Shown here piece after piece: positions 4,184 through 61,122 of a stretch of 64,000 bases of DNA (its first letter is position 1; every line of letters begins with the position of its first letter). Made by a program: the position numbers and the translations under genes. The notes under the pieces were generated by a model that saw nothing but the letters and a program-made list of their open reading frames with translations, had not been told where the DNA came from and did no database searches. Origin of the DNA: Candidatus Kaiserbacteria bacterium RIFCSPLOWO2_01_FULL_50_24 (GTDB lineage Bacteria > Patescibacteriota > Minisyncoccia > Phycocordibacterales > UBA2100); the NCBI GenBank assembly GCA_001783335.1, contig MFLU01000010.1:30122-94121 (forward strand). Direction: 5' to 3'.

Positions 4184-4217
4184 CGTGGAACGTGATATAC
4201 TAATGGGGTACCACAAG

Positions 4218-4440
4218 TAAAAACTAAAAATGAAAAATGAAAAACGACCCCGCACCAAAAATCTCACCATTCCTCTTTATGCATTCAAACCACGTTCGCA
4301 GATTTTGGTACGGGGCATGCAATGAAAAATTAAAAGTTAGGCTCAAGGGTGCTCCCGACGGAATGTAACTTTTAACTTTTAACTTTTAACTTTTAACTTT
4401 TAACTGCAATTTTTACCTTTTCATTTTTACTTTTTAATTT
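4218..4440. repeat. Family-B-related AT-rich foldback element containing an (AACTTTT)5 tandem heptamer at 4367-4401
   Basis: The left arm aaaactaaaaatgaaaaatgaaaaacga and right arm ttttaccttttcatttttactttttaattt are inverted copies. The arm motif is shared with the repeats at 16251, 18171 and 18621. Confidence 0.7.
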
Positions 4441-6418: not shown

Positions 6419-7009
6419 ATGTTAAATGCATACACTGAAATGAAAAAAGTTCGCGATGAGGTATTCTCGCTTGACGGCGAATTGGCGGAATATAGAAAAA
6501 AGAATAATTATTTTGCGGTTTTGGGAGAGGGGAGCCACGATGCGAACATTATGTTTATCGGCGAGGCACCTGGTAGAAATGAGGCAAAAACCGGCCGGCC
6601 GTTTTGTGGCGCGGCCGGGCGTATCTTGGACGACCTTCTCCTTTCCATCAACGTGCCGCGCGAGGATGTGTATATTACCAACATTGTGAAAGACAGGCCG
6701 CCGGAAAATCGCGACCCGCTACCGTCTGAAATTGAACTCTATGCGCCGTTTCTAGACCGTCAAATTGATATCATCAAGCCGAAAATACTTGCAACGCTTG
6801 GCAGATTTTCCATGGAATATATCATGCGGAAGTTTGAGCTCGTGTTTGAGCTGGAATCCATCAGCGCGGCCCACGGCAAAATGTACGATGCCTTTGCCTC
6901 GTATGGCGCGATTAAAATCATTCCTCTCTACCACCCCGCCGCCGCCATCTATAATCAGTCTCTCAAAGAAACCCTCAAAAAGGACTTCCAAGAGCTTAAA
7001 ACCCCGTAA
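6419..7009 (+). CDS. Uracil-DNA glycosylase, family 4
   Basis: It carries the GEAPGRNEAKTGRPFCGAAGRILD motif and a C-terminal HPAA segment. Confidence 0.85.
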   Translation: MLNAYTEMKKVRDEVFSLDGELAEYRKKNNYFAVLGEGSHDANIMFIGEAPGRNEAKTGRPFCGAAGRILDDLLLSINVPREDVYITNIVKDRPPENRDPLPSEIELYAPFLDRQIDIIKPKILATLGRFSMEYIMRKFELVFELESISAAHGKMYDAFASYGAIKIIPLYHPAAAIYNQSLKETLKKDFQELKTP

Positions 7010-7766
7010 AACCCTAGAGGCGTCGCCTCTAGGATTTATCAGAACGAACTCTCAGTCTCCGTGTAATAGGTAGCGGCATCACGCAAGACAGATGAAAGTT
7101 TTGGAAGACCGTCTGCCAATATGTTGTATACATTGTCGTCTAATATCGCTCGTTCTACGCGTTCCAATCCGCAGTAGTCCGGCATGCTGGAAAAAGGATA
7201 ATTTAAAAGTTTGTGTTCCAGATTTTTAAAATCAGATACTTTTCCATGTTTCCAATTAGGTTCAAACTTTTCCGCCACATTCAGATGAATATATTGAAGA
7301 ACATGACGTAGGTACGTTTCGTCGTCAACATGCTTGGAACGAAACGGCTTCACAAATATATTGCCGACGCGCGAGCGTTTTTCATTAAAATACATTGCAT
7401 ATCCGGTTCCAAGTTTTTGCATGAATTTGGATATGCCTCTGTCTTCGATCTCTTGCATTAAAATATGGTAGTGGTTTGGCATGAGGGAGTATCCGCCAAT
7501 GGCGACGATATTTTGTTCACGAGGCAGTTGTAAGATATCGTGATGGGGCATATGTTGAAAATTTCCGCGAACAATTGGTTTCGTATCGTTCGACAAGTAC
7601 ATTAGCTCGACGAATCTGTTGCAGTCATCCCCGGTTTCAAAAGTGGTACGTTTGTCAATGCCACGATCAAAGCAGTGATACCACTCGTTGATGGCGAAAG
7701 GAGTGCGTCTATATCCCATACTAACCAACCATAACATAATCCTAGAGGCGTTGCCTCTAGGATTAC
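7008..7766 (-). mobile_element. REP-RAYT-REP unit: an IS200/IS605-like HUH (Y1) transposase gene flanked on both sides by the palindrome cctagaggcg(t/c)(c/t)gcctctagg
   Basis: REP copies lie at 7013-7033 and 7741-7761, a few nt outside the stop (7039) and start (7737) of the transposase ORF. A third copy is at 9657-9677. Confidence 0.65.
7039..7737 (-). CDS. REP-associated tyrosine transposase (RAYT) / IS200-like Y1 transposase
   Basis: The HUH motif LMPNHYHILM and a downstream catalytic-Tyr region (RHVLQYIHLNVAEK) match the Y1_Tnp family. The gene is flanked by REP palindromes. Confidence 0.65.
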   Translation of the reverse strand: MLWLVSMGYRRTPFAINEWYHCFDRGIDKRTTFETGDDCNRFVELMYLSNDTKPIVRGNFQHMPHHDILQLPREQNIVAIGGYSLMPNHYHILMQEIEDRGISKFMQKLGTGYAMYFNEKRSRVGNIFVKPFRSKHVDDETYLRHVLQYIHLNVAEKFEPNWKHGKVSDFKNLEHKLLNYPFSSMPDYCGLERVERAILDDNVYNILADGLPKLSSVLRDAATYYTETESSF

Positions 7767-7871
7767 AGGATTATGCTTTCAACACGCCACACGCGTGGCG
7801 TATTCGGAATCGGGGTTGTATTTTGTGTGTTTTCCTATATAGTGCCGACAGAGAAGAAAGGGAGAAACGAA

Positions 7872-9641
7872 ATGACGGTTGAGGCAACTTGGATTAAGAC
7901 CAAATGGAATCTTGGACTTCTATACGATTCGCTGACGGACCCAAGAATAGAGGAAGATATATCAAAACACGAGCGTGCGTTTGAGGACTTTGAAAGGCGG
8001 TATCGGAACGACACGGCGTATCTTGGAGATGTGGTCGCACTATGTATAGCGCTCCCGGACTACGAGTCTCTCTGGCGCGTGGGTAATTACAAACCCTTAC
8101 GCTATCTGTCGTTTGTAAACACGCTTGATAGCACAAACGCAGAGTGCAAAGCGCTCCAGCAAAAAATCACAGAACGTTTGGTGCGTGCTGGGAATCGCAT
8201 TAAATTTTTCCCGCTATCACTTGGAAAAATTTCCAAAGAAGCACAGGAGGCGTTTCTTGCAAGGGAATTACTGGCGCCGTATCGGTATTGGTTATCAAAA
8301 CTTTTTGAGGAAGCGCGACACAAACTCACAGAGCCGGAAGAGAAAATTCTTGCACTGAAAGCAAATACGTCAAGCGGAATGTGGACTTCGGGCGTGAAAA
8401 ACACCCTCAACAAGCAGGTTATCACGTTTGATGGCACAGAAATTCCTCTCAATGAAGCTGAAGGTAAAGTGTCAACGATACACGATACCGAAAAGCGCCG
8501 CGCCTTGTGGAGTGCGGTCATAGAAGGGTACCAGCGATTAGGTGATTTTGCGGAAAGCGAAATTAACGCCGTGTTCACCGACAAGAAAATCAACGATGAA
8601 TTGCGTGGGTACAAGGAACCGTACGATGCGACAATCCTCGGATACGAAAACAAAAGAGAAAGCGTGCTGGCGCTCGTAAAAACGGTAACCGAGAATTTTT
8701 CGGTAAGCCAGCGATTCTTCGAGGTCAAGTGCCGCATGCTTGCATTGCCGGAATTGACATATGCCGATCGTGGCGTGTCTCCGGGCCGTCAGATGCGTAG
8801 TTACTCATTTACCGAGTCGGTGCGGATTACTGAAAATGCCCTTGACCGCGCAGATCCAAGGTACGGAAACATATTTAGGGATTATCTTCGACACGGACAG
8901 ATAGATGTGTTTCCGCACGCGAACAGAGCTAGTGGCGGATTCTGCGCGGGCACGATAGATCTGCCGACCTTCATTTTCTTGAATCATGCGGACAACTTGC
9001 GCTCCTTGTCTACGTTGGCGCATGAGGTGGGGCACGGCATCCACTATGAACGCTCAAAGGTCCAATCGCCCATGTATCAACAATTTACGATACCGGTCGC
9101 GGAAACGGCCAGCACATTCTTTGAGGGCCTCGCGTTTAACCGAGCGATGAAAGAGATGGATGCGAGTGAGAAAGCGATAGCGCTTCACGAGCGGCTGAAT
9201 GGTGAAATTGCAACCATTTTCCGACAAATCGCCTTCTTTAACTTTGAGGAAGAATTACATCGCGCGGTGCGGGAAGACGGTTGGGTTACCAAAGAGGAAA
9301 TCGCGCGGATGCTCAACAGGCACACGGGGGCCTACATGGGCCCCACGATGAAATTGCGGGACGAAGACGGCTATTTCTTCATCACCGTGCCGCACTTCCG
9401 CTATATGTTCTACGTGTATTCATATGCGTATGGTCAATTGATAAGTCGGGCTCTCGTGCGACGGGTCCAAAATGACTCTGCGTACATCAAGCAGGTAGAT
9501 CGGTTTCTCTCTGCTGGCGGAAGTCAAAAGCCCGAGCACATATTTGCCGACATCGGCATTGAAGTAAACGAGGAGTTTTTCCGCGAGGGCATCGCGGAAA
9601 TTGAAAAAGACCTCTCGGAACTTGAGCAACTGGTTGCGTAA
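7872..9641 (+). CDS. pepF: Oligoendopeptidase F (M3B family metallopeptidase)
   Basis: It has the HEVGHGIH zinc motif and PepF-like length. The start at 7872 has a GGGAG RBS and was preferred over the upstream ORF-track start. Confidence 0.85.
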   Translation: MTVEATWIKTKWNLGLLYDSLTDPRIEEDISKHERAFEDFERRYRNDTAYLGDVVALCIALPDYESLWRVGNYKPLRYLSFVNTLDSTNAECKALQQKITERLVRAGNRIKFFPLSLGKISKEAQEAFLARELLAPYRYWLSKLFEEARHKLTEPEEKILALKANTSSGMWTSGVKNTLNKQVITFDGTEIPLNEAEGKVSTIHDTEKRRALWSAVIEGYQRLGDFAESEINAVFTDKKINDELRGYKEPYDATILGYENKRESVLALVKTVTENFSVSQRFFEVKCRMLALPELTYADRGVSPGRQMRSYSFTESVRITENALDRADPRYGNIFRDYLRHGQIDVFPHANRASGGFCAGTIDLPTFIFLNHADNLRSLSTLAHEVGHGIHYERSKVQSPMYQQFTIPVAETASTFFEGLAFNRAMKEMDASEKAIALHERLNGEIATIFRQIAFFNFEEELHRAVREDGWVTKEEIARMLNRHTGAYMGPTMKLRDEDGYFFITVPHFRYMFYVYSYAYGQLISRALVRRVQNDSAYIKQVDRFLSAGGSQKPEHIFADIGIEVNEEFFREGIAEIEKDLSELEQLVA

Positions 9642-9656
9642 CGCGCATCCAAAAAC

Positions 9657-9677
9657 CCTAGAGGCGTCGCCTCTAGG
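9657..9677. repeat. Third copy of the REP palindrome cctagaggcgtcgcctctagg, downstream of pepF
   Basis: It matches the copy at 7013-7033 exactly. Confidence 0.9.
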
Positions 9678-9751
9678 ATTATGAGTGGTTTGACCGACTA
9701 TATTCTTCACCCTCGTGGCACACGCGCCGCGGGGGTGATATTCTTTGTGTT

Positions 9752-11572: not shown

Positions 11573-11587
11573 ATCTTTATAGACTTT

Positions 11588-11623
11588 TTATGCCATGGCA
11601 TAAAAAGTCTATACACAGACAAT
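11588..11623 (+). terminator. Perfect 36-bp palindrome (tatagactttttatgcc|atggcataaaaagtctata) immediately after alaS
   Basis: A 16-bp stem follows 16 nt after the alaS stop. It could act as a terminator in either direction. Confidence 0.6.
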
Positions 11624-14794: not shown

Positions 14795-14896
14795 GCACAC
14801 CTGTTTGGGAGACCGCTCACGCCTCGCTCCAGTTTTGTCTTTCAGCAAAACTGGAGCGAGGCTCCACTACGGTTAAGTCTCCCAAACAGGTGTGCC
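14795..14896. repeat. Nested perfect palindromes between infA and rpmJ (outer 20-bp arms ggcacacctgtttgggagac, inner 17-bp arms gcctcgctccagttttg)
   Basis: The exact reverse-complement arms are 14795-14814 with 14877-14896, and 14821-14837 with 14847-14863. Confidence 0.85.
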
Positions 14897-15016
14897 TCCT
14901 CCGCTGAGGGTGGTTGGATACAGAATTGCATACGTGTCTGCGGGTGACAAAGAAACCTTGCATTTTTTGCGGTTTCAGGTTACATTCTCTCGTACCCATG
15001 TCCGATTGGGTTTATG

Positions 15017-15131
15017 CATGAAAGTTAAAGCATCGGTGAAGAAAATTTGTCAGCACTGCCGCCATGTGCGCCGGCGAGGGCGATTACGGGTTATTTGCAA
15101 GAATCCGAGGCATAAGCAGAGACAGGGGTAG
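15017..15131 (+). CDS. rpmJ: 50S ribosomal protein L36
   Basis: The translation [37 protein letters not shown] matches L36. Confidence 0.9.
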
Positions 15132-15240
15132 CTTCTAGCTTTGAGCTTCTAGCTTCTAGGAAAAACCTGGAGGTTGGAAGCTCCAAGTCAGGGGCACAAA
15201 GTAAAAACCTATAAGCTAAAAGCTAGCACCTAGAAGCTAT
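15132..15240. repeat. Family-D intergenic repeat (agcttctag units, ending ...cctagaagctattc)
   Basis: Other copies lie at 44909-45001 and as a fragment inside leuS at 50228-50269. Confidence 0.75.
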
Positions 15241-15245
15241 TCATT

Positions 15246-15626
15246 ATGCGTATCTCCGGTATTACAATCCCAGAAAATAAGCGGCTTGAGATAGGCCTCA
15301 CGGCGGTGTATGGTGTGGGGCGGCCACGCGCGCGCGCCACACTTGCGCTACTTGGTATTGACTCGGGCGCGCGCCCGAAGGATTTGTCACAAAAAGAGGA
15401 AGGCGCGCTTCGAGAGGCGGTAGAGAAAAATAAGGTGGAGGGCGAGTTGAAGCGTTTTATTTCAGCCAACATTCGGCGGCTTAAAGACATCAAGGCGTAT
15501 CGAGGAGGGCGCCATGCAAAACGACTTCCGGCTCGGGGACAGGGAACTAAAACAAACTCGCGCACCGTGCGCGGCAATGTGCGAAAGACGATGACCTCAG
15601 GCAAACGCAAATTAGAAAAGACATAA
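15246..15626 (+). CDS. rpsM: 30S ribosomal protein S13
   Basis: The N-terminus is MRISGITIPENKRLEIGLTAVYGVGR. Confidence 0.95.
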   Translation: MRISGITIPENKRLEIGLTAVYGVGRPRARATLALLGIDSGARPKDLSQKEEGALREAVEKNKVEGELKRFISANIRRLKDIKAYRGGRHAKRLPARGQGTKTNSRTVRGNVRKTMTSGKRKLEKT

Positions 15627-15639
15627 TATGTGCCAATCT

Positions 15640-15800
15640 GCAAATATATTTCAACCTGCAAATGGCTACGAATTTACAAAAAGCACCAAATTCCAAGCAC
15701 CAAATCACAATGAACAAAATACAAAATACAAAACAAAATACGTTTGAGACATTAGGATTTAGAATTTCGGTATTGTTTGGAATTTGGGATTTGTAATTTG
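15640..15800. repeat. Family-C intergenic repeat (ccaagcaccaaatcacaa ... tttggaatttg-gatttgtaatttg)
   Basis: Its ends are shared with 23305-23455 (inverted orientation) and 30271-30410, with fragments at 46903-46958 and inside leuS at 50612-50686. Confidence 0.75.
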
Positions 15801-15815
15801 TTATTTTCCTTATCT

Positions 15816-16250
15816 ATGGGTAAAAAACGCATAATTCGAAAAAGCGGCGGCTCGGTAGACCAAGGCCTTAAATCGAGGTCGTTAGCTCGTGTTGCAAAAA
15901 AGAACATGCTCGCCGGTACTCTTCATATTCAGGCAACGTACAACAACACAAAGGTACTGCTTGCCGATAAGGAGGGCAACACGGTTGCGTGGTCGTCTTC
16001 CGGAGCACTCGGATTCTCCGGCGCAAAGAAAGGAACACCGTTTGCGGCGGCGAAAGTTGGAGAGCTCATTGGTGAGAAAGCAAATATCATCGGCGTTAAA
16101 GAGGTTGATGTAGTTATTCGGGGCGTCGGTGCAGGTAGGGAATCGGCCTTGCGCGCGTTTGCGTCAAAAGGAGTTGACGTATCGCGCATAAGAGACAATA
16201 CCCCCATTCCGCACAATGGGCCGAGACCGCCGAAGCCACGCAGAGTTTAA
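15816..16250 (+). CDS. rpsK: 30S ribosomal protein S11
   Basis: The sequence MGKKRIIRKSGG...LHIQATYNNT matches S11. The start was set at the internal Met rather than the ORF-track start. Confidence 0.95.
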   Translation: MGKKRIIRKSGGSVDQGLKSRSLARVAKKNMLAGTLHIQATYNNTKVLLADKEGNTVAWSSSGALGFSGAKKGTPFAAAKVGELIGEKANIIGVKEVDVVIRGVGAGRESALRAFASKGVDVSRIRDNTPIPHNGPRPPKPRRV

Positions 16251-16378
16251 ATTAAAAACTAAAAGTGAAAAATGAAAAACGACAACTTAAAATGTAAAAC
16301 CACACACACGCTTCTCGGAAGTTTTTAACTTTTCATTGTCGTTTTTAGATTTTCATTTTAAATTTTAAACTTGTTATT
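16251..16378. repeat. Family-B intergenic foldback repeat (arms aaaaatgaaaaacgacaa / ttgtcgtttttagattttcattt, core cacacgcttctcgg)
   Basis: It is nearly identical to 18621-18748, and a truncated copy lies at 18171-18266. Confidence 0.8.
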
Positions 16379-18266: not shown

Positions 18267-18620
18267 GTGCGTCATCACAATAAAAACAGAATACTGGGTC
18301 GCACAAAAAGGCAACGTACAGCGCTTTTACGCGGCTTGGCGCGTTCACTTGTGCTTCACGGCGCCATTGTGACTACCGAGGCGAAAGCAAAAGAGCTTCG
18401 TCCGTTCATAGAGCGTGTTGTCACAGATGGTAAGAAGAAGACGCTTGCCTCACGTCGTTCCGTGACGACCAAGCTGGCTAGCTCACGTGAAGCGACTCAA
18501 AAACTTTACGAAACGTACGCGACACGTTTCATAAACCGCGCAGGCGGATATACGCGCATTGTAAAACTCGGGACACAAGGTAAGCGTGTGGGCGAAATGG
18601 CGAGGATAGAGTTTGTATAA
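18267..18620 (+). CDS. rplQ: 50S ribosomal protein L17
   Basis: The translation matches L17. Confidence 0.95.
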   Translation: MRHHNKNRILGRTKRQRTALLRGLARSLVLHGAIVTTEAKAKELRPFIERVVTDGKKKTLASRRSVTTKLASSREATQKLYETYATRFINRAGGYTRIVKLGTQGKRVGEMARIEFV

Positions 18621-18748
18621 ATTAAAAACTAAAAGTGAAAAATGAAAAACGACAATTTAAAATGTAAAACGGCACACACGCTTCTCGGCAGTTTTTAACT
18701 TTTCATTGTCGTTTTTAGATTTTCATTTTAAATTTTAAACTTGTTGTT
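18621..18748. repeat. Family-B repeat, full copy
   Basis: It is nearly identical to 16251-16378. Confidence 0.8.
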
Positions 18749-23304: not shown

Positions 23305-23455
23305 AATAAATAACAAATTACAAACCTCAAATTCCAAACAAATTCAAATAACCGAAATCACAAATTCAAAACTGGTACGTCGTGTTTTGTATTTAGTAAT
23401 TAGAATTTAGATATTTTGATATTTTTTGTGATTCGGTACTTGGAATTTGGTGCTT
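23305..23455. repeat. Family-C intergenic repeat (inverted relative to the copy at 30271)
   Basis: It contains ggtacgtcgtgttttgtatttagtaattagaattt, the reverse complement of the segment at 30310-30345. Confidence 0.75.
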
Positions 23456-23530
23456 TTTAGAAATTTGTAACCACTTGTAGTATTCGTATCATTTGCAGAT
23501 CGGCCATAATTTTCGTAGTAGTATATTGCC

Positions 23531-30270: not shown

Positions 30271-30410
30271 AATCCCAAGCACCAAGCACCAAATCACAAA
30301 CAATATCTAAATTCCAATTACTAAATACTAAACACGACGTACCCATTTTGAATTTGTTATTTCGGTGATTTGAATTTGTTTGGAATTTGTTATTTGTAAT
30401 TTGGAATTTA
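30271..30410. repeat. Family-C intergenic repeat
   Basis: See the entry at 15640. Confidence 0.75.
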
Positions 30411-30412
30411 TT

Positions 30413-33203: not shown

Positions 33204-33274
33204 TGTCAACCCAGCACTAATCCCGCCTGGGCGGGATTAGTGCTGGGTAAAAATTGCGATACAATTACATCTAT

Positions 33275-45360: not shown

Positions 45361-45461
45361 TATACCTGCGTCACATACACTAATTATTCACGACTGTGAA
45401 TAATTAGTGTATGAGAAAAGTGACAAAAAGACCCCGCTAATAACGCGGGGCCGACAAGATG

Positions 45462-46902: not shown

Positions 46903-46954
46903 AGTTTTGGTATTTGATATTGTTATTTATTTGGAATTTGTGTTTTGTAATTTG

Positions 46955-48235
46955 TTATTTGCCAGTGAGTAGCAACTCAATGGCCGCCTCCATCTGCGGA
47001 TCGCGCTTCGCTTCCCTGTCTTCGTCAGAAATTTCCACCTCAACATCCGGCACGATGCCATCTTGCGGGATTTGCGCCCCATCGGGTCCGAGCCAACGCG
47101 CCACGGTAATCTTCAGTGCCGTTTCTGGAGTAATGTCCACCAATTCCTGCACTGAGCCCTTGCCAAAGGTGCTTTCTCCGACAAGTGTTGCTTTACCGTA
47201 ATGCTGGAGCGCCACGGCAAAAATTTCTGAAGCGGAGGCAGAGCCTTGGTCTATAAGAACAACCACTTTCAAATTGTTATTAAAAATATCGTACCCGCGA
47301 CTTCTGTGAACAATATTCCCTACATTTCCCCCGTAATCTTCTTCCACAACGATCTTTCCGGATGGCAAAAACCAACTCGCCATTTCCACCGCCGCCTCAA
47401 GATAGCCACCCGGATTGCCACGCAGATCAATGATAAGATTTTGTGAACCGGATTCTACGAATTCACGCAAGGCACTCCTGAAAAGCCCCGCAGAATTTGC
47501 CGAAAAATTCATAAGTTCAATAACAAACACGTCTTGTTTTGCTTCCTTGGAATCCCCGCTTTCCGTACTGATGGTTTGCTTTATGCGCTCCGTACTGATA
47601 GTGGGGATGTCAATGGTGTCGCGCGTAACGCTAATGTCGCGCGGCTCGCTCCATCCTTCGCGCACGACCGTAAGCACAACCACCGTCCCTTTCGGGCCAC
47701 GAATGCGGCGCACTGCTCCGCTAATGTCTAGGCCGCGTGTCTCGAGATGATCTATATGCGTAATTCTGTCGCCACTTTTTAACCCGGCACGTTCCGCAGG
47801 CGTCCCCTTAAGCGGTGACACCACTGTAAGCACCTGGTTGCGTACGGCAATTTCCATACCTACGCCCTCGAAACTTCCGTTCATGTCTTCGCCAAAAATT
47901 TGATTTTCAACGGGCGGCAAAAAGAAGGTATAGGGATCATCAAGCGAGTTCGCAAGGCCTTGTATCATTCCCCATACGCGAATCTCTTCAACACTTGCAG
48001 TGGTTGTCGGGGTTGAGGTAGAAACGGCAGCGGGAACAAAACGCTCGTCAATAATACGCCACGCCTTCCAGACTGGCGAAAAATTGACTCCTTCCGGCGG
48101 TGTCTCCGCTAACATCGCAAGAGAAACATCCGTGCGCGCACCCATTACCAAACCGATAGAGAAGCTGACCGCAGTAAGGCCCACCACACCAAGCACGAGA
48201 AGCGCGCGTCTATTGTGTTGTGATGTTTCTGGCAT
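46955..48235 (-). CDS. ctpA: Carboxyl-terminal processing protease (S41) with a PDZ domain
   Basis: It has the GNPGGYL motif, the LIDQGSASASEIFA motif and a PDZ segment. Confidence 0.9.
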   Translation of the reverse strand: MPETSQHNRRALLVLGVVGLTAVSFSIGLVMGARTDVSLAMLAETPPEGVNFSPVWKAWRIIDERFVPAAVSTSTPTTTASVEEIRVWGMIQGLANSLDDPYTFFLPPVENQIFGEDMNGSFEGVGMEIAVRNQVLTVVSPLKGTPAERAGLKSGDRITHIDHLETRGLDISGAVRRIRGPKGTVVVLTVVREGWSEPRDISVTRDTIDIPTISTERIKQTISTESGDSKEAKQDVFVIELMNFSANSAGLFRSALREFVESGSQNLIIDLRGNPGGYLEAAVEMASWFLPSGKIVVEEDYGGNVGNIVHRSRGYDIFNNNLKVVVLIDQGSASASEIFAVALQHYGKATLVGESTFGKGSVQELVDITPETALKITVARWLGPDGAQIPQDGIVPDVEVEISDEDREAKRDPQMEAAIELLLTGK

Positions 48236-49768: not shown

Positions 49769-52645
49769 CTAAGTTCTTAAAACAAAGTTTACAAGGCGAT
49801 TTGGAACGACGATTACTTTTACCACTTCCCTGCCCTGTAGTCGCGTGGCCACCACTTCACGAGCGGCGCGTTCGTGCTCGACTTTGTCTGCCCTCGTAGC
49901 GATGGTCACCTCGCCGCGCACCTTGCCATCTATCTGCACGGCAATGGTTACCGTTTCGTCTTTCAGAAACTTTTCATCATATTCCGGCCACTTTTGGAGA
50001 TGAATGGACCCTTTTCCGCCACATTGAGACCATAGCTCCTCCGCGACATGCGGCACAAATGGAGCAAGGAGTTTCAAGAATATTTCCCACTGTTTTTTTC
50101 CTATCGTTTTTTCTTTCTCTGCGGCATTCATAAAAATCATCAATTGACTTATTGCCGTATTGAATTTGAACGCCGCAATATCTTCCGTAATTTTCTTTAT
50201 TGTTCGGTGTAAAGATGTTTGCAGATTTGGATTTTCTGGAAGCTTAAAGCTAGAAGCTGGAAGCTGACCCCGTCGCCATATACGCTCCAAAAAACGGCGC
50301 ACGCCTATCAGACTCTCGGTTTTCCATGCAATCGTATTCTCAAATGGCCCCATGAACATTTCGTAAAGGCGTAGAGTATCAGCTCCGTAAAGCTTCACCA
50401 CGTCGTCGGGATCAATGGTGTTTTTGAAGCGCTTACTCATTTTTCGGCCGTCTTCGGCAAGCACAAGCCCGACAGTATGAAGCTGTATGAATGGTTCCAT
50501 CGTTGAGACGATGCCTATGTCGTGCAGAAATTTGTGCCAGAAACGGGCATATATGAGGTGTCTCGTTGCATGTTCCACGCCGCCCACATACACGTCAACC
50601 GGCAACCATTTTTGTATTTTGTTTTGAAGTTTGGTACTTAGAGATTGTTTGGAATTTGGTACTTGTGATTTGAGATTTTCGCTTATGCAATAAGCGATGT
50701 GGTACCAGCTTGAGCCCGCCCACTGCGGCATCGTATTCGTTTCGCGCCTCCCTTTCCCGCCGCACGTCGGACACTTCGTATTCACCCACTTCGTGATATT
50801 GGCAAGCGGTGATTCACCGGTGCCGGACGGCGCATACGATTTCACTTCCGGCAATATAACTGGCAGATATTTTTCCGACACCGGCACCACGCCGCATTTT
50901 TCGCAATGAATCATGGGGATCGGCTCACCCCAGTATCGCTGGCGCGAAAAAATCCAATCACGCAATTTGTAGGTAGTTTTTGGTGTGCCGAAACGCGCAG
51001 TTATTTTTTTTCTCGCCTCCGCACTATCCGTACCGCTAAACTCGCCCGAATCAATGAGAATACCCTCGCCCATATATGCATCCATGCCAGAAAATATGCG
51101 TTCAGTAATGATCTGTGCTTCAGAATGTTGAAACCGTGTTTTAGTGAGGTCACGGGCGGGTATCCACACCACCTCATGCTTCTCCGCTTCTTTTGGATCA
51201 ATCTTCTCGCGTGCATCGCTTGCAAGCTCAAAAAGCAATAGAGAATTACGTGCAACGCGATTGACCCCCTTGTGCGCCGCATAGAATTCCGCCTGCGCAT
51301 CGCCACCAAGTTTGCGCACAAATCGCACATCGGTGTATCCGGTTTCCTCGGCTATCTCGCGCCGCGCCGACTCGACAACGTCTTCCCCATTCTCCACGCC
51401 GCCCGTAACATACGTGATCCACGGTTGTTTTTTCCAGCGGAGCGTCAGATAGCGATCGGTTTTCGGATCGTACACAATGTTGATCGTTGCACGCCGATGC
51501 ACCACTTCCTTGTTCGGTTGATGCGGATTGGTCGGATCCGGCAGATGCGGCATGATAACGTCGCGTATGGAAATATTGTATTTTTTAGCAAACTCAAAAT
51601 CGCGCTCGTCGTGCGCCGGAACCGCCATAATGGCACCTGTTCCTACACCCGCCAGCACATAGTCTGCGACAAATATCGGTATTTCTTCTTTCGTCGCCGG
51701 ATTAACTGCCCTTATTCCTTCAAGTAGAACTCCCGTCTTTTCCTTATGTTCCTGCCGTTCCAGATCAGACTTTTTTGCTGCAGCTTTTATATAATCCTCC
51801 ACCTCATCTGAATTTACGCAAGTCTGACTTGCGTAAATAGACTGTACGAGCGTATGCTCCGGTGCGAGTGTAAGATATGTCGCTCCAAACAGTGTGTCGG
51901 GTCTCGTTGTAAAAACCTCTATTTGAAATTTGGATTTTAAAATTTGAAATTTTATCAGTGCGCCCTCGGATTTTCCGATCCAATTTCTCTGCAGTTCTTT
52001 TATGTACTCCGGCCACGGCAGAGTGTCGAGGTCGGCAAGCAGTCGGTCGGCGTAGTCGGTAATGCGTAGAACCCATTGCGGCAAGCGTTTTTGCTCCACA
52101 ACCGTGCCGCAGCGCTCGCACGCATTTCCTTCCAGATCTTCATTTGCAAGCCCCGTCTTGCACGACGGACACCAGTTGATCGGCTCATCAGACTGATACG
52201 CGAGGCCTTTTTTAAAAAGCTGGAGAAAGATCCACTGCGTCCACTTGTAGTATTCCGGGTCGGTAGTGTTTATTTCGCGGTCCCAATCGTAGTCAAAACC
52301 TATATGCGAGAGCTGTTCCTTAAAGCGCGCGATGTTTTTCTTCACCGCCACGCGCGGATGCACTTTATTTTGGAGCGCATAGTTCTCCGCCGGAAGACCG
52401 AATGCATCCCACCCCATTGGGTGTAGCACCGATCTTCCGCGCATACGCTGAAATCGCGAGTAAATATCGCTCGCGATGTAGCCCTTGGGATGCCCCACGT
52501 GGAGCCCCTCTCCCGAGGGATACGGAAACATATCAAGTACATAGCACTTCTTTTTTCCTTTTTTTTCAGTGGAGCGGTATACTTTTTTCTTCGCCCATTG
52601 CAGTTGCCATTTTCGCTCAATAGATTTGTGATCGTATCGCTTCAT
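49769..52645 (-). CDS. leuS: Leucyl-tRNA synthetase carrying an inserted Nudix domain (about aa 365-520) and two repeat-derived low-complexity inserts
   Basis: It has HVGH (HIGH), KMSKR, the editing-domain motif TTRPDT and a LeuRS C-terminus. The insertion after the editing domain contains a perfect Nudix box GGVENGEDVVESARREIAEETGY. Confidence 0.95.
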   Translation of the reverse strand: MKRYDHKSIERKWQLQWAKKKVYRSTEKKGKKKCYVLDMFPYPSGEGLHVGHPKGYIASDIYSRFQRMRGRSVLHPMGWDAFGLPAENYALQNKVHPRVAVKKNIARFKEQLSHIGFDYDWDREINTTDPEYYKWTQWIFLQLFKKGLAYQSDEPINWCPSCKTGLANEDLEGNACERCGTVVEQKRLPQWVLRITDYADRLLADLDTLPWPEYIKELQRNWIGKSEGALIKFQILKSKFQIEVFTTRPDTLFGATYLTLAPEHTLVQSIYASQTCVNSDEVEDYIKAAAKKSDLERQEHKEKTGVLLEGIRAVNPATKEEIPIFVADYVLAGVGTGAIMAVPAHDERDFEFAKKYNISIRDVIMPHLPDPTNPHQPNKEVVHRRATINIVYDPKTDRYLTLRWKKQPWITYVTGGVENGEDVVESARREIAEETGYTDVRFVRKLGGDAQAEFYAAHKGVNRVARNSLLLFELASDAREKIDPKEAEKHEVVWIPARDLTKTRFQHSEAQIITERIFSGMDAYMGEGILIDSGEFSGTDSAEARKKITARFGTPKTTYKLRDWIFSRQRYWGEPIPMIHCEKCGVVPVSEKYLPVILPEVKSYAPSGTGESPLANITKWVNTKCPTCGGKGRRETNTMPQWAGSSWYHIAYCISENLKSQVPNSKQSLSTKLQNKIQKWLPVDVYVGGVEHATRHLIYARFWHKFLHDIGIVSTMEPFIQLHTVGLVLAEDGRKMSKRFKNTIDPDDVVKLYGADTLRLYEMFMGPFENTIAWKTESLIGVRRFLERIWRRGQLPASSFKLPENPNLQTSLHRTIKKITEDIAAFKFNTAISQLMIFMNAAEKEKTIGKKQWEIFLKLLAPFVPHVAEELWSQCGGKGSIHLQKWPEYDEKFLKDETVTIAVQIDGKVRGEVTIATRADKVEHERAAREVVATRLQGREVVKVIVVPNRLVNFVLRT

Positions 52646-59342: not shown

Positions 59343-59382
59343 AAACACACTCTCAATATCTTAAGATATTGAGAGTGTGTTT
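59343..59382. promoter_or_regulatory. Perfect 40-bp palindrome (aaacacactctcaatatc-ttaa-gatattgagagtgtgttt), about 85 nt upstream of the PNPOx-like gene
   Basis: It has 18-bp exact arms around a TTAA centre, which could be an operator-like site or a bidirectional hairpin. Confidence 0.6.
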
Positions 59383-59873
59383 ACTGGCGACATAGAGCGA
59401 GTGAAATGAAAATGTACTCATTTGCATTTCCGAGCCGAGCCCACACACTTACTTTTGGTTTTCGCTTTGCGCGTTCTGGCAAGCCAAAACAAACCGAAAG
59501 TAAGTGTGTGGGCCGCGGAGGGAGACAACCGGTGTTTAACGCCCCGTGGTCTCGCAATGCGCCGGTTTACGCGTCATTTTTTCTGCCACCACTACACCAT
59601 AATATAACGACACTACACATCTGAGCCGGTCGGCCCAGATGTGTAGTGTGTGGTTCGGTGACTATGCAGGCAAAGGAATTGACGAGTAGACAGATATGCA
59701 CGGCCTATACTGACAGCCTATACCAGAACAACTCACTTTCGAAATCGTCGCGTGTTATTCTTGTGAAAGAGAAAGATAATGGATTGTTGTGGTTGTAATC
59801 ACCGGGTTGATCGTGGGGATATTCATTGTGAACTGAAAGAGCGTACCGGCACTGCAGTGCCGGTCTTTTTTTG

Positions 59874-60671: not shown

Positions 60672-60986
60672 CTACGCGCGACAGGAAGCAAGAAAGCAGA
60701 GCGCCTGCACGTTGTCCTCACTCATTTGACGCGTTGGGCGCTTCGCGCCACATGTTGTGCATCGGTGAATAATGCGGTAGGTTGGACTCGAGCCCTCCAC
60801 GCGCGTTGGTTCCATCAAACCACCGCACTTGTTTGCCCTATCGCCGGGTTCGTTGTCCACATGTTTACTCCATAAACAACGCGGACAGTGATTGGTATAG
60901 CCGTTCCCCTTTACATCAAGACCACACCTATCACACGCGAAATCTTCAACTTGTTTTATGAAAACCATAGGTATAAGCAAATCCAA
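60672..60986 (-). CDS. RNHCP-domain zinc-ribbon protein
   Basis: It has CDRCG...TNHCPRCLWSKHVD...YRIIHRCTTCG. Confidence 0.6.
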   Translation of the reverse strand: MDLLIPMVFIKQVEDFACDRCGLDVKGNGYTNHCPRCLWSKHVDNEPGDRANKCGGLMEPTRVEGSSPTYRIIHRCTTCGAKRPTRQMSEDNVQALCFLASCRA

Positions 60987-61122
60987 ATTTCAAAGCTCAA
61001 ATGTCAAATAAAATCCAAAACTTAAATATCAAAAAGCCTGCGGTACAAAGAATTGTATGTGTTTAGTCATTTGGATTTTGGGCTTGGTTTGAACTTTGGA
61101 TTTTGTCATTTGGATTTAAACT
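60979..61122. repeat. Family-A MITE-like foldback element, second copy
   Basis: It matches 54 of 55 positions of 591-645. Confidence 0.75.

Follow-up and report, generated by a model that had tools for sequence, protein, structure and literature searches.

The window analysed in this work, i.e. the whole stretch of 64 kb from Candidatus Kaiserbacteria bacterium RIFCSPLOWO2_01_FULL_50_24, encodes on its minus strand a Y1 HUH enzyme, a relative of transposases. The gene lies between two copies of a short palindrome, and a third copy is found after the neighboring gene, pepF. The original prediction for this locus was that of a repetitive extragenic palindromic (REP) sequence-associated tyrosine transposase (RAYT) in a REPtron-like unit, whose palindromes would double as bidirectional terminators. 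The local gene order is UDG, which converges on the Y1 gene from the left, the Y1 gene itself, pepF, which diverges from it to the right, the third palindrome, and alaS. The features are the following (coordinates are those of the window):

7009-7037, no strand: palindrome 1, 3' of the Y1 gene, with the core CCTAGAGGCGtCGCCTCTAGG at 7013-7033
7039-7737, minus strand: Y1 HUH gene (IS200 superfamily, RAYT/TIRYT-like), longest open reading frame (ORF) of 232 amino acids, assigned by Pfam, motifs, and fold
7737-7765, no strand: palindrome 2, 5' of the Y1 gene, TAATCCTAGAGGCGTTGCCTCTAGGATTA, arms of 13 bp with one G-T mismatch at the top
7773-9641, plus strand: pepF (oligoendopeptidase F, M3 family), assigned by Pfam; context only, between palindromes 2 and 3
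9654-9680, no strand: palindrome 3, orphan copy, matching palindrome 1 over 29 nt

We searched the window with the pattern CCTAGAGGCG(T/C)(C/T)GCCTCTAGG, also written CCTAGAGGCGNNGCCTCTAGG, and found exactly three matches, at 7013-7033, 7741-7761, and 9657-9677, which are the very positions that had been predicted. There is no fourth match in the 64 kb, even when up to 3 mismatches are allowed, and the number expected by chance is 0.00 (100 shuffles). The coordinates listed above cover the arms with their A/T feet. The third copy does follow pepF, 15 nt past the stop codon and 74 nt ahead of the alaS ORF, and positions 9652-9680 are identical to 7008-7036 over 29 nt (AAAACCCTAGAGGCGTCGCCTCTAGGATT), both copies having one orientation and an imperfect foot in common (AAAACC...GGATT). 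Since sites 1 and 3 share even this imperfect foot, we regard one as a direct copy of the other, and site 2 is 90% identical to them. Folded as single strands, each of the three sites gives a stem of 9-13 bp closed by a loop of 3 nt, with energies of -9 to -12.6 kcal/mol (z = -3.2 to -7.4). Palindrome 1 occupies almost the whole 29-nt gap between the stop codon of the convergent UDG gene, which ends at 7009, and that of the Y1 gene, which ends at 7039. Palindrome 2 is in the divergent region common to the Y1 gene and pepF.

The ORF described from the sequence, 232 amino acids long at 7039-7737 and with HUH (HYH) and tyrosine motifs, is present and matches the Pfam profile Y1_Tnp (PF01797), the check proposed at the time, with 28 bits for a cutoff of 23 (E = 2.5e-6, residues 72-151). 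The HUH motif is formed by H89 and H91 (NHYH) and the catalytic tyrosine is Y149 (YIHLNV); the protein also contains the motifs KPFRSKH and YPFSS. We aligned 43 family members, the homologs being 45-65% identical to the window protein, and found H89, H91, P131-F132-R133 of KPFRSKH, Y149, H151, N153, and S184 of YPFSS to be invariant. The invariance of the HUH histidines and of the tyrosine suggests that the chemistry was retained, and not binding alone. All 42 aligned homologs begin with MGYRR, and we thus take Met7 (ATG at 7719-7717) as the probable true start, which gives a protein of 226 amino acids. This changes in part the initial view that the palindromes lie within 6 nt of both ends of the ORF: the downstream one is 5 nt from the stop codon and the upstream one 3 nt from the first ATG, but the latter is 17 nt ahead of the probable start codon (7719).

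The AlphaFold2 model of the protein has a high confidence (predicted local distance difference test of 90.4). Its best match in PDB using Foldseek is 4ER8, the RAYT of E. coli bound to a REP hairpin (E = 1.9e-6), followed by the complexes of the ISDra2 and IS608 TnpA with their hairpins, the three ranging from E = 2e-6 to 1e-3. Searches of PDB by sequence, with the protein or with the family profile, gave nothing significant (best match ISDra2 TnpA, E = 0.74). The C-terminal tail of ~78 amino acids is helical in the model, and residues 155-232 have no Pfam match even at E <= 10. The equivalog model REP_Tyr_transpos of NCBIfam (NF047646) gives 35.1 bits, below its cutoff of 80. The family is large: a search of 5.8 billion proteins retrieved 343 relatives, nearly all with 220-250 amino acids, and those with a name are from Kaiserbacteria, Paceibacterota, or the "Patescibacteria group". 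A profile search of 1.84 billion cluster representatives gave 881 clusters at 50% identity (E <= 1e-30).

To study the association of the gene with the palindromes, we gathered homologous loci via the protein alone, 4 by look-up of the exact protein and 80 from metagenomes. This resulted in 69 distinct loci from Kaiserbacteria, Adlerbacteria, and Paceibacterota, with 31-63% protein identity. A palindrome, here defined by at least 8 matching arm pairs and at most 1 mismatch, was found on both sides of the gene in 55 loci, on one side in 13 (several of which are cut by contig ends), and on neither side in 1. The upstream palindrome ends at a median of 18 nt ahead of the start codon (interquartile range of 16-24 nt). 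The downstream one begins at a median of 13 nt past the last aligned codon and at times overlaps the end of the gene. The density of perfect palindromes (arms of 8 nt or more, 1-nt centre) served as an unbiased control: the gene flanks have 2.96 per kb, whereas the rest of these loci (541 kb) has 0.063 per kb, i.e., 47-fold less. When paralogs occur on the same contig (locus L091), each has its own type of palindrome. Because the layout of a gene between two palindromes was kept in 55 of the 69 distinct loci, we regard the palindromes as the cognate sites of the enzyme. The cognate association is close to certain, and the unit is REPtron-like in its architecture. Given that the window has only three copies, one might invoke a coincidence, of chance or of assembly, unrelated to the ORF. 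This is hardly conceivable, since no copy is expected by chance, the same three copies are found in independent assemblies of ENA and JGI samples, and the layout recurs across the family with such an enrichment in the flanks.

When the palindromes are aligned on their dyad, the centre AGGYG-W-CRCCT is conserved (conserved tip AGGCGTCGCCT), with A, G, and G at positions -5, -4, and -3 in, respectively, 100, 103, and 99 of 108 sequences. The commonest centre is GGCG[A/T]CGCC, and the variants include GGTG[A/T]CACC, GATG.CATC, AGCG.CGCT, and GGTC.GACC. Positions 6-12 from the centre are lineage-specific, yet complementary: the outer stems include CCTAGAGG, TCAAGAGG, CCCAAAGG, TCCGTGG, GTCAAGG, and CTCTGGAAG, among others. 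The outer stems are paired in 93% of the cases, against 37-51% when the partner column is slid, with double changes in all 12 pairs, although the value of 93% is partly circular because the palindromes were selected beforehand, the alignment being built from the best palindrome per flank. Compensatory changes keep the pairing out to 12-20 bp. A comparison that is not circular is that of the identity of the outer stems, which is 87% between the two copies of one gene and 36% between loci. Nor is there such circularity in the palindrome types of the L091 paralogs. The outer stem is thus shared within a locus and not conserved across lineages, which points to copying or homogenisation of the copies rather than to selection for a particular sequence. 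The central A/T has no consistent polarity, as the two flanking copies agree in 30 loci and differ in 25. A GT[AG]G tag at up to 6 nt from the foot, on either strand, was found in 2 of 84 palindromes, for 3.9 expected by chance.

Some of these traits fit another explanation, in which the palindromes are ordinary regulatory or terminator hairpins and the protein is a dimeric DNA-binding autoregulator that lost its transposase activity. The upstream palindrome would then be its operator, the downstream one a terminator, and the orphan copies further operators. The perfect dyad symmetry, the 1-nt centre, and the conserved 11-bp core are what one expects in such a case, as is an upstream site held at 16-24 nt from the start codon, and site 3 is upstream of alaS. 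Also, this genome commonly has long perfect hairpins right after genes, e.g., at 11578-11613 after alaS, and the left-end hairpin of IS200 is itself a terminator. However, catalysis seems to have been retained, given that the HUH histidines and the tyrosine do not vary across the family. The compensatory pairing extends to 12-20 bp, far past the footprint of a protein, and within each locus the two copies have homogenised outer stems. Furthermore, there are in-frame copies in housekeeping genes (see below), where an operator or a terminator makes no sense. We thus regard this explanation as quite improbable.

The role of bidirectional terminators, which had been proposed for the palindromes, is weak. 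The terminator scan did not call sites 1 and 3, neither of which has a T-tract, and it called site 2 on the minus strand only, in front of the gene. The expected enrichment at the ends of convergent genes was not observed either: the six intergenic orphan copies examined lie between co-directional genes. On the other hand, the genome often places long hairpins devoid of T-tracts directly after genes. The window has a set of long, unique, perfect or near-perfect hairpins, with arms of 17-21 bp, at 11578-11613, 33209-33248, 59343-59382, 45371-45416, 14821-14862, and 59610-59649. They have no obvious T-tracts, the first is 6 nt past the alaS stop codon, and they look like the ordinary gene-end hairpins of this genome.

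The locus has the traits of a resident gene. The identical protein, in the same gene order, is found on 24 contigs read from several ENA/JGI samples, and the 64-kb window has no second member of the family. In an ortholog with 63% identity, present in three of the loci, the Y1 gene directly adjoins alaS, pepF is absent, and UDG is 3 kb away; this ortholog has palindromes of its own, ATTCAAGAGGCGaCGCCTCTTGAAT upstream and AATCCGAGAGG...CCTCTCGGATT downstream. The genomic context is unrelated in more distant homologs. Some contigs have two or three members of the family (L091, and L073 with L105 on one contig of 208 kb), and these co-resident paralogs match the window protein at 34-52% identity and have different palindromes. 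Taken together, the shared gene order, the alaS neighbor, and the single copy in the window are more easily reconciled with a resident gene than with an insertion sequence that is active.

Still, the gene and its two hairpins could form a minimal IS200-type insertion sequence that is autonomous, a unit of ~750 bp that transposes and of which the hairpins are the subterminal ends. IS200 likewise consists of one small Y1 gene between subterminal hairpins (PMC6006769), and here too the hairpins hug the ends of the ORF. The unrelated contexts of the distant homologs and the contigs with several family members are also in line with this possibility. We nevertheless consider it unlikely. The unit occurs once in 64 kb, its context is identical on contigs from several samples, and the ortholog at 63% identity still adjoins alaS. 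The co-resident paralogs and their palindromes are divergent, with nothing to indicate a recent duplication. The unit has one and the same symmetric palindrome at its two ends, instead of a left end that differs from the right one, and the orphan copies consist of a lone palindrome, the gene being absent. Finally, the tyrosine motif is the class-2 Y---N(P), not the Y---Q of IS200, and the protein has ~230 amino acids, not 150 (PMC6006769).

The gene pepF lies exactly between palindromes 2 and 3 (7741-9677) and, as mentioned above, is absent from the relatives at 63% identity. A similar arrangement was found in locus L118 (880-1845), where an ORF of 289 amino acids has the downstream palindrome on one side and a third copy on the other. 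These two genes may be palindrome-bounded cassettes, with only two examples at hand. We treat pepF as context rather than as an established part of the element.

How far have the palindromes spread away from the gene? We scanned one genome per species, i.e., 185,579 representative genomes, for the palindrome. It was found 3-5 times in each of three metagenome-assembled genomes (MAGs) of Patescibacteria, and no representative genome has more than 5 exact copies. The palindrome thus appears to be rare per genome, unlike a classic abundant REP. In several places it adjoins homologs that are only 30-54% identical to the window protein. As for orphan copies, there is 1 in the 64-kb window and approximately one cognate copy per 50 kb around the homologs, often less than 1 kb from the gene. 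Among 12 orphan copies in the Patescibacteria MAGs, 5 are intergenic, between co-directional genes wherever this could be resolved. Another 5 are inside genes supported by Pfam, always in an open frame:

MnmA: the copy encodes NPRGDASRM
M13 peptidase: the copy encodes ILEATPLGE
Dus: the copy is in an open frame
ArgRS: the copy is in an open frame
PurH: the copy is at the C-terminal end

Judging from these sequences, the palindrome has likely spread within genes, by insertion or by replacement. In Dus there is an apparent insertion, but only relative to a distant structure with 30% identity. We looked for a clean empty site as a proof of intragenic insertion, and the alignments of the M13 peptidase, MnmA, and Dus were ambiguous.

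The scan also led to observations on other clades and on mobile elements. The MAG CAZHOB, which accounts for five of the loci, is labelled Candidatus Saccharibacteria. Its MnmA is closest to unnamed metagenome proteins (at most 70% identity), and the relatives with a name are from Kaiserbacteria/Paceibacterota (~60%). This kinship makes the label doubtful, and we did not use this MAG as evidence for a spread beyond Paceibacteria. In Collinsella (nine loci), we found the 9-bp stem again, here with an AAA/TTT loop (CAGCCTAGAGGCAAAGCCTCTAGGCTG), in many genomes and at what is apparently one conserved locus. It is probably an unrelated terminator-like hairpin that matches the pattern by coincidence. 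A phage origin was considered and set aside, as there is no copy of the palindrome in IMG/VR. Among plasmids, the relatives of the protein are only "transposase" genes at 23-39% identity.

We think it likely that the locus is a vertically inherited, single-copy class-2 Y1 HUH gene, of the RAYT/TIRYT branch, flanked by two copies of the hairpin that its product recognises. The enzyme would bind the hairpin form of the palindrome and read its conserved tip, AGGYG-W-CRCCT, in a sequence-specific manner, whereas the remaining stem would only need to pair. Tyr149, together with the metal bound by the HUH motif, would nick and rejoin single-stranded DNA at the hairpins. Occasionally, a single palindrome of ~27-29 nt would be copied to a new place, palindrome 3 being one such copy. 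The model for this mechanism is provided by the solved complexes of IS608, ISDra2, and the E. coli TnpA-REP, in which hairpins are read on single-stranded DNA (PMC3479197, PMC6006769), and it is by analogy with them that the Y1 enzyme is predicted to bind and cleave the hairpin. We also infer that the enzyme is active in making copies of the palindrome. The upstream hairpin may have another function. A promoter does not fit into the ~18 nt between this hairpin and the start codon, so that the hairpin probably lies in the 5' leader or overlaps the promoter. The left-end hairpins of IS200 limit the expression of their gene, and this analogy suggests that the upstream hairpin may also limit the expression of the Y1 gene.

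Several results weigh against this explanation. The very low copy number implies that the spread of the palindrome is rare or mostly ancient. In line with this, we saw no polymorphism of presence or absence among the contigs of the source population, which all carry the same three copies. The evidence from intragenic copies is also mitigated, since the segment of the M13 peptidase encoded by the palindrome aligns without gaps to a solved homolog, and the copy in MnmA fills a loop of variable length, which exceeds that of the closest ortholog (72% identity) by only 6 residues. The tyrosine motif of the window protein, YIHLNV, differs from the family consensus, YIHLNP. To this one must add the partial circularity of the pairing score and the perfect dyad symmetry at a fixed distance from the start codon, which would also suit a dimeric regulator that binds double-stranded DNA.

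A broader reading, about which we are more doubtful, is that of an ancient pair of enzyme and hairpin inherited vertically throughout Paceibacteria/Parcubacteria. In this scenario, an Y1 enzyme resembling subclass 2.1 would read the tip AGGYGWCRCCT, near-unchanged at 30-50% protein identity. It would write single palindromes of 27 nt, also in frame into housekeeping proteins, and may mobilise the host genes enclosed between them (pepF and the 289-aa ORF of L118). If this were true, intragenic palindromes like those of Rickettsia would have their first candidate enzyme, and the palindrome would be a minimal mobile unit made of one hairpin.

The window and the related loci have other repeats. 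A perfect palindrome of 27 nt that is unrelated to those above, ATTTACGCAAGTCtGACTTGCGTAAAT, is found at 51812-51838, in frame within the leuS ORF (49769-52645, minus strand), where it encodes IYASQTCVN. Its core, AGTCWGACT, resembles the TGTCAAAAGTCWGACTTTTGACA palindromes that flank a divergent Y1 paralog (31% identity) in locus L031 (602-1303). We found no second Y1 gene in the window that would match the leuS palindrome. Downstream of this paralog, at 1300-1400 of L031, an orphan CCTAGAGGCGTCGCCTCTAGG palindrome adjoins palindromes of the other family (core AGTCWGACT), so that the palindromes of two families are clustered there, as REPs are in bacterial interspersed mosaic elements.

The window also has inverted repeats in which one arm is A-rich and the other T-rich, with a ~7-nt period (AAATCCAAATTTCAAAG... 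/ ...TTTGGATTTTGACATTTG), at 590-764 and 60979-61120. Further repeats of this type are found at 15686-15808, 23309-23457, 30271-30411, 46912-46962, 50630-50680, 2051-2111, 4215-4427, 16250-16303, and 18620-18673. Those of the repeats that were checked against the ORFs are intergenic. A single long hairpin is predicted for the region 585-770 (-62 kcal/mol, z = -7.3), and the two copies that are 60 kb apart are 83-98% alike. An Rfam scan of the whole window had no matches, including for these repeats. They may be a second repeat family, possibly related to miniature inverted-repeat transposable elements, or AT-rich terminators. In the MnmA of the window (about 2051-2111; 14983-16074 in locus L038), a loop has a translated A-rich heptamer repeat (KSKIKNQNDNIKSKNQ), and in another MAG (L008) the same loop carries the CCTAGAGG palindrome. 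The repeat sequences that this loop seems to tolerate differ between lineages.

The RAYT/REP association is the textbook case of a transposase domesticated along with its own non-autonomous elements. To our knowledge, what is known of it comes almost entirely from Proteobacteria and Cyanobacteria. We compared the locus with REPtrons, taking the E. coli YafM/RayT (PDB 4ER8) and subclasses 2.2, 2.4, 2.5, 2.7, and 2.8 of Quentin et al. 2018 (PMC6006769). The reading as a REPtron stands in part. As in REPtrons, a vertically inherited Y1 HUH gene, in single copy in the 64-kb window, is bracketed by a palindrome that is found elsewhere in the genome too, the class-2 tyrosine motif Y---NP is that of the family, each paralog has its own type of palindrome, and the closest structure is that of a RAYT. 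What does not stand is a canonical RAYT with its REPs. The score of the window protein (35 bits) is far from the 80-bit cutoff of NCBIfam for RAYT, and the GT[AG]G guide tetranucleotide is absent. The palindromes are perfect with a 1-nt centre, whereas REP hairpins are imperfect or bulged, and those of the window are singlets instead of REPIN doublets, doublet-like forms being restricted to a few relatives (three loci, one of which is L031). There appears to be a handful of copies per genome, as judged from the 64 kb and from the representative genomes, whereas REPs have tens to hundreds. Finally, the protein is ~65 amino acids longer, with an uncharacterised helical tail.

The closest published group may be that of the TIRYT and TIRtrons of Di Nocera et al. 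2013 (PMC3733652), equated with subclass 2.1 of TnpA-Y1 (PMC6006769). For this subclass, the published table gives NH[YF]H, Y[IV]HLNP, an SS tail motif, and a median of 238 amino acids (PMC6006769, Table 1). Our family has NH[YFP]H, YIHLNP, YPFSS, and 222-245 amino acids, and the divergent paralog of L031 has the "FQ" variant. Hence, in a comparison made by eye, the motifs and the length of the Y1 protein appear to fit subclass 2.1/TIRYT better than the REP-associated subclasses. As in TIRtrons, inverted repeats flank the gene and give rise to small repeat families or to none, and some of the terminal inverted repeats (TIRs) were described as "partly or wholly self-complementary" (PMC3733652). 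There are differences, as the genes of subclass 2.1 have no REP-like hairpins beside them according to Quentin et al. (PMC6006769), whereas a hairpin is the rule here. The GGGGWSAS of most TIRs is absent, the flanks being palindromes with the core AGGYGWCRCCT, and the tail does not match the reported helix-turn-helix profiles (Bac_DnaA_C, HTH_23, HTH_28). With TnpA of IS200/IS605 (IS608, ISDra2; subclass 1.1), the family shares the fold, the chemistry of HUH plus tyrosine, and a gene placed between hairpins, which the IS200/IS605 enzyme reads on single-stranded DNA. It differs from them by Y---N(P) in place of Y---Q, by a length of 226-232 amino acids instead of 150, by not being multi-copy, by the lack of tnpB, and by its two identical, symmetric ends, where IS200/IS605 has a left subterminal hairpin that differs from the right one.

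Neither of the two studies on these subclasses (PMC6006769, PMC3733652) mentions Patescibacteria, and our literature search found no paper linking RAYT, REPIN, or IS200-like proteins to palindromes of Patescibacteria. We class the family as a clade of RAYT/TIRYT-like enzymes that extends across Paceibacteria and whose perfect palindrome has a conserved tip and an apparently low copy number. That a large family of Patescibacteria keeps this layout with almost no proliferation of the hairpin suggests that the flanking hairpins may matter for the gene itself, i.e., that they may serve the control of its expression or a host function of the enzyme, and not merely be relics of spreading. Moreover, a conserved tip of 11 nt in a stem that covaries freely amounts to a natural mutagenesis of the recognition site, which could be used in the biochemistry of HUH enzymes and their hairpins.

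The last comparison concerns the palindromes within genes. The Rickettsia palindromic elements (RPE), reportedly described by Ogata et al. in 2000, are said to be in-frame palindromes of 100-150 bp in genes, and we know of no enzyme dedicated to them. The similarity lies in short palindromic repeats in frame in housekeeping genes (here MnmA, M13 peptidase, Dus, ArgRS) of a small and gene-dense genome. The difference lies in the unit, which is of ~27 nt here and comes with an obvious candidate enzyme; it would have entered the genes by insertion or by replacement in place. Intragenic REPs have also been described (PMC3733652). The in-frame copies in genes for tRNA modification and for an aminoacyl-tRNA synthetase, in genomes that are very small, tie this family of enzymes to the old puzzle of palindromes within coding sequences.

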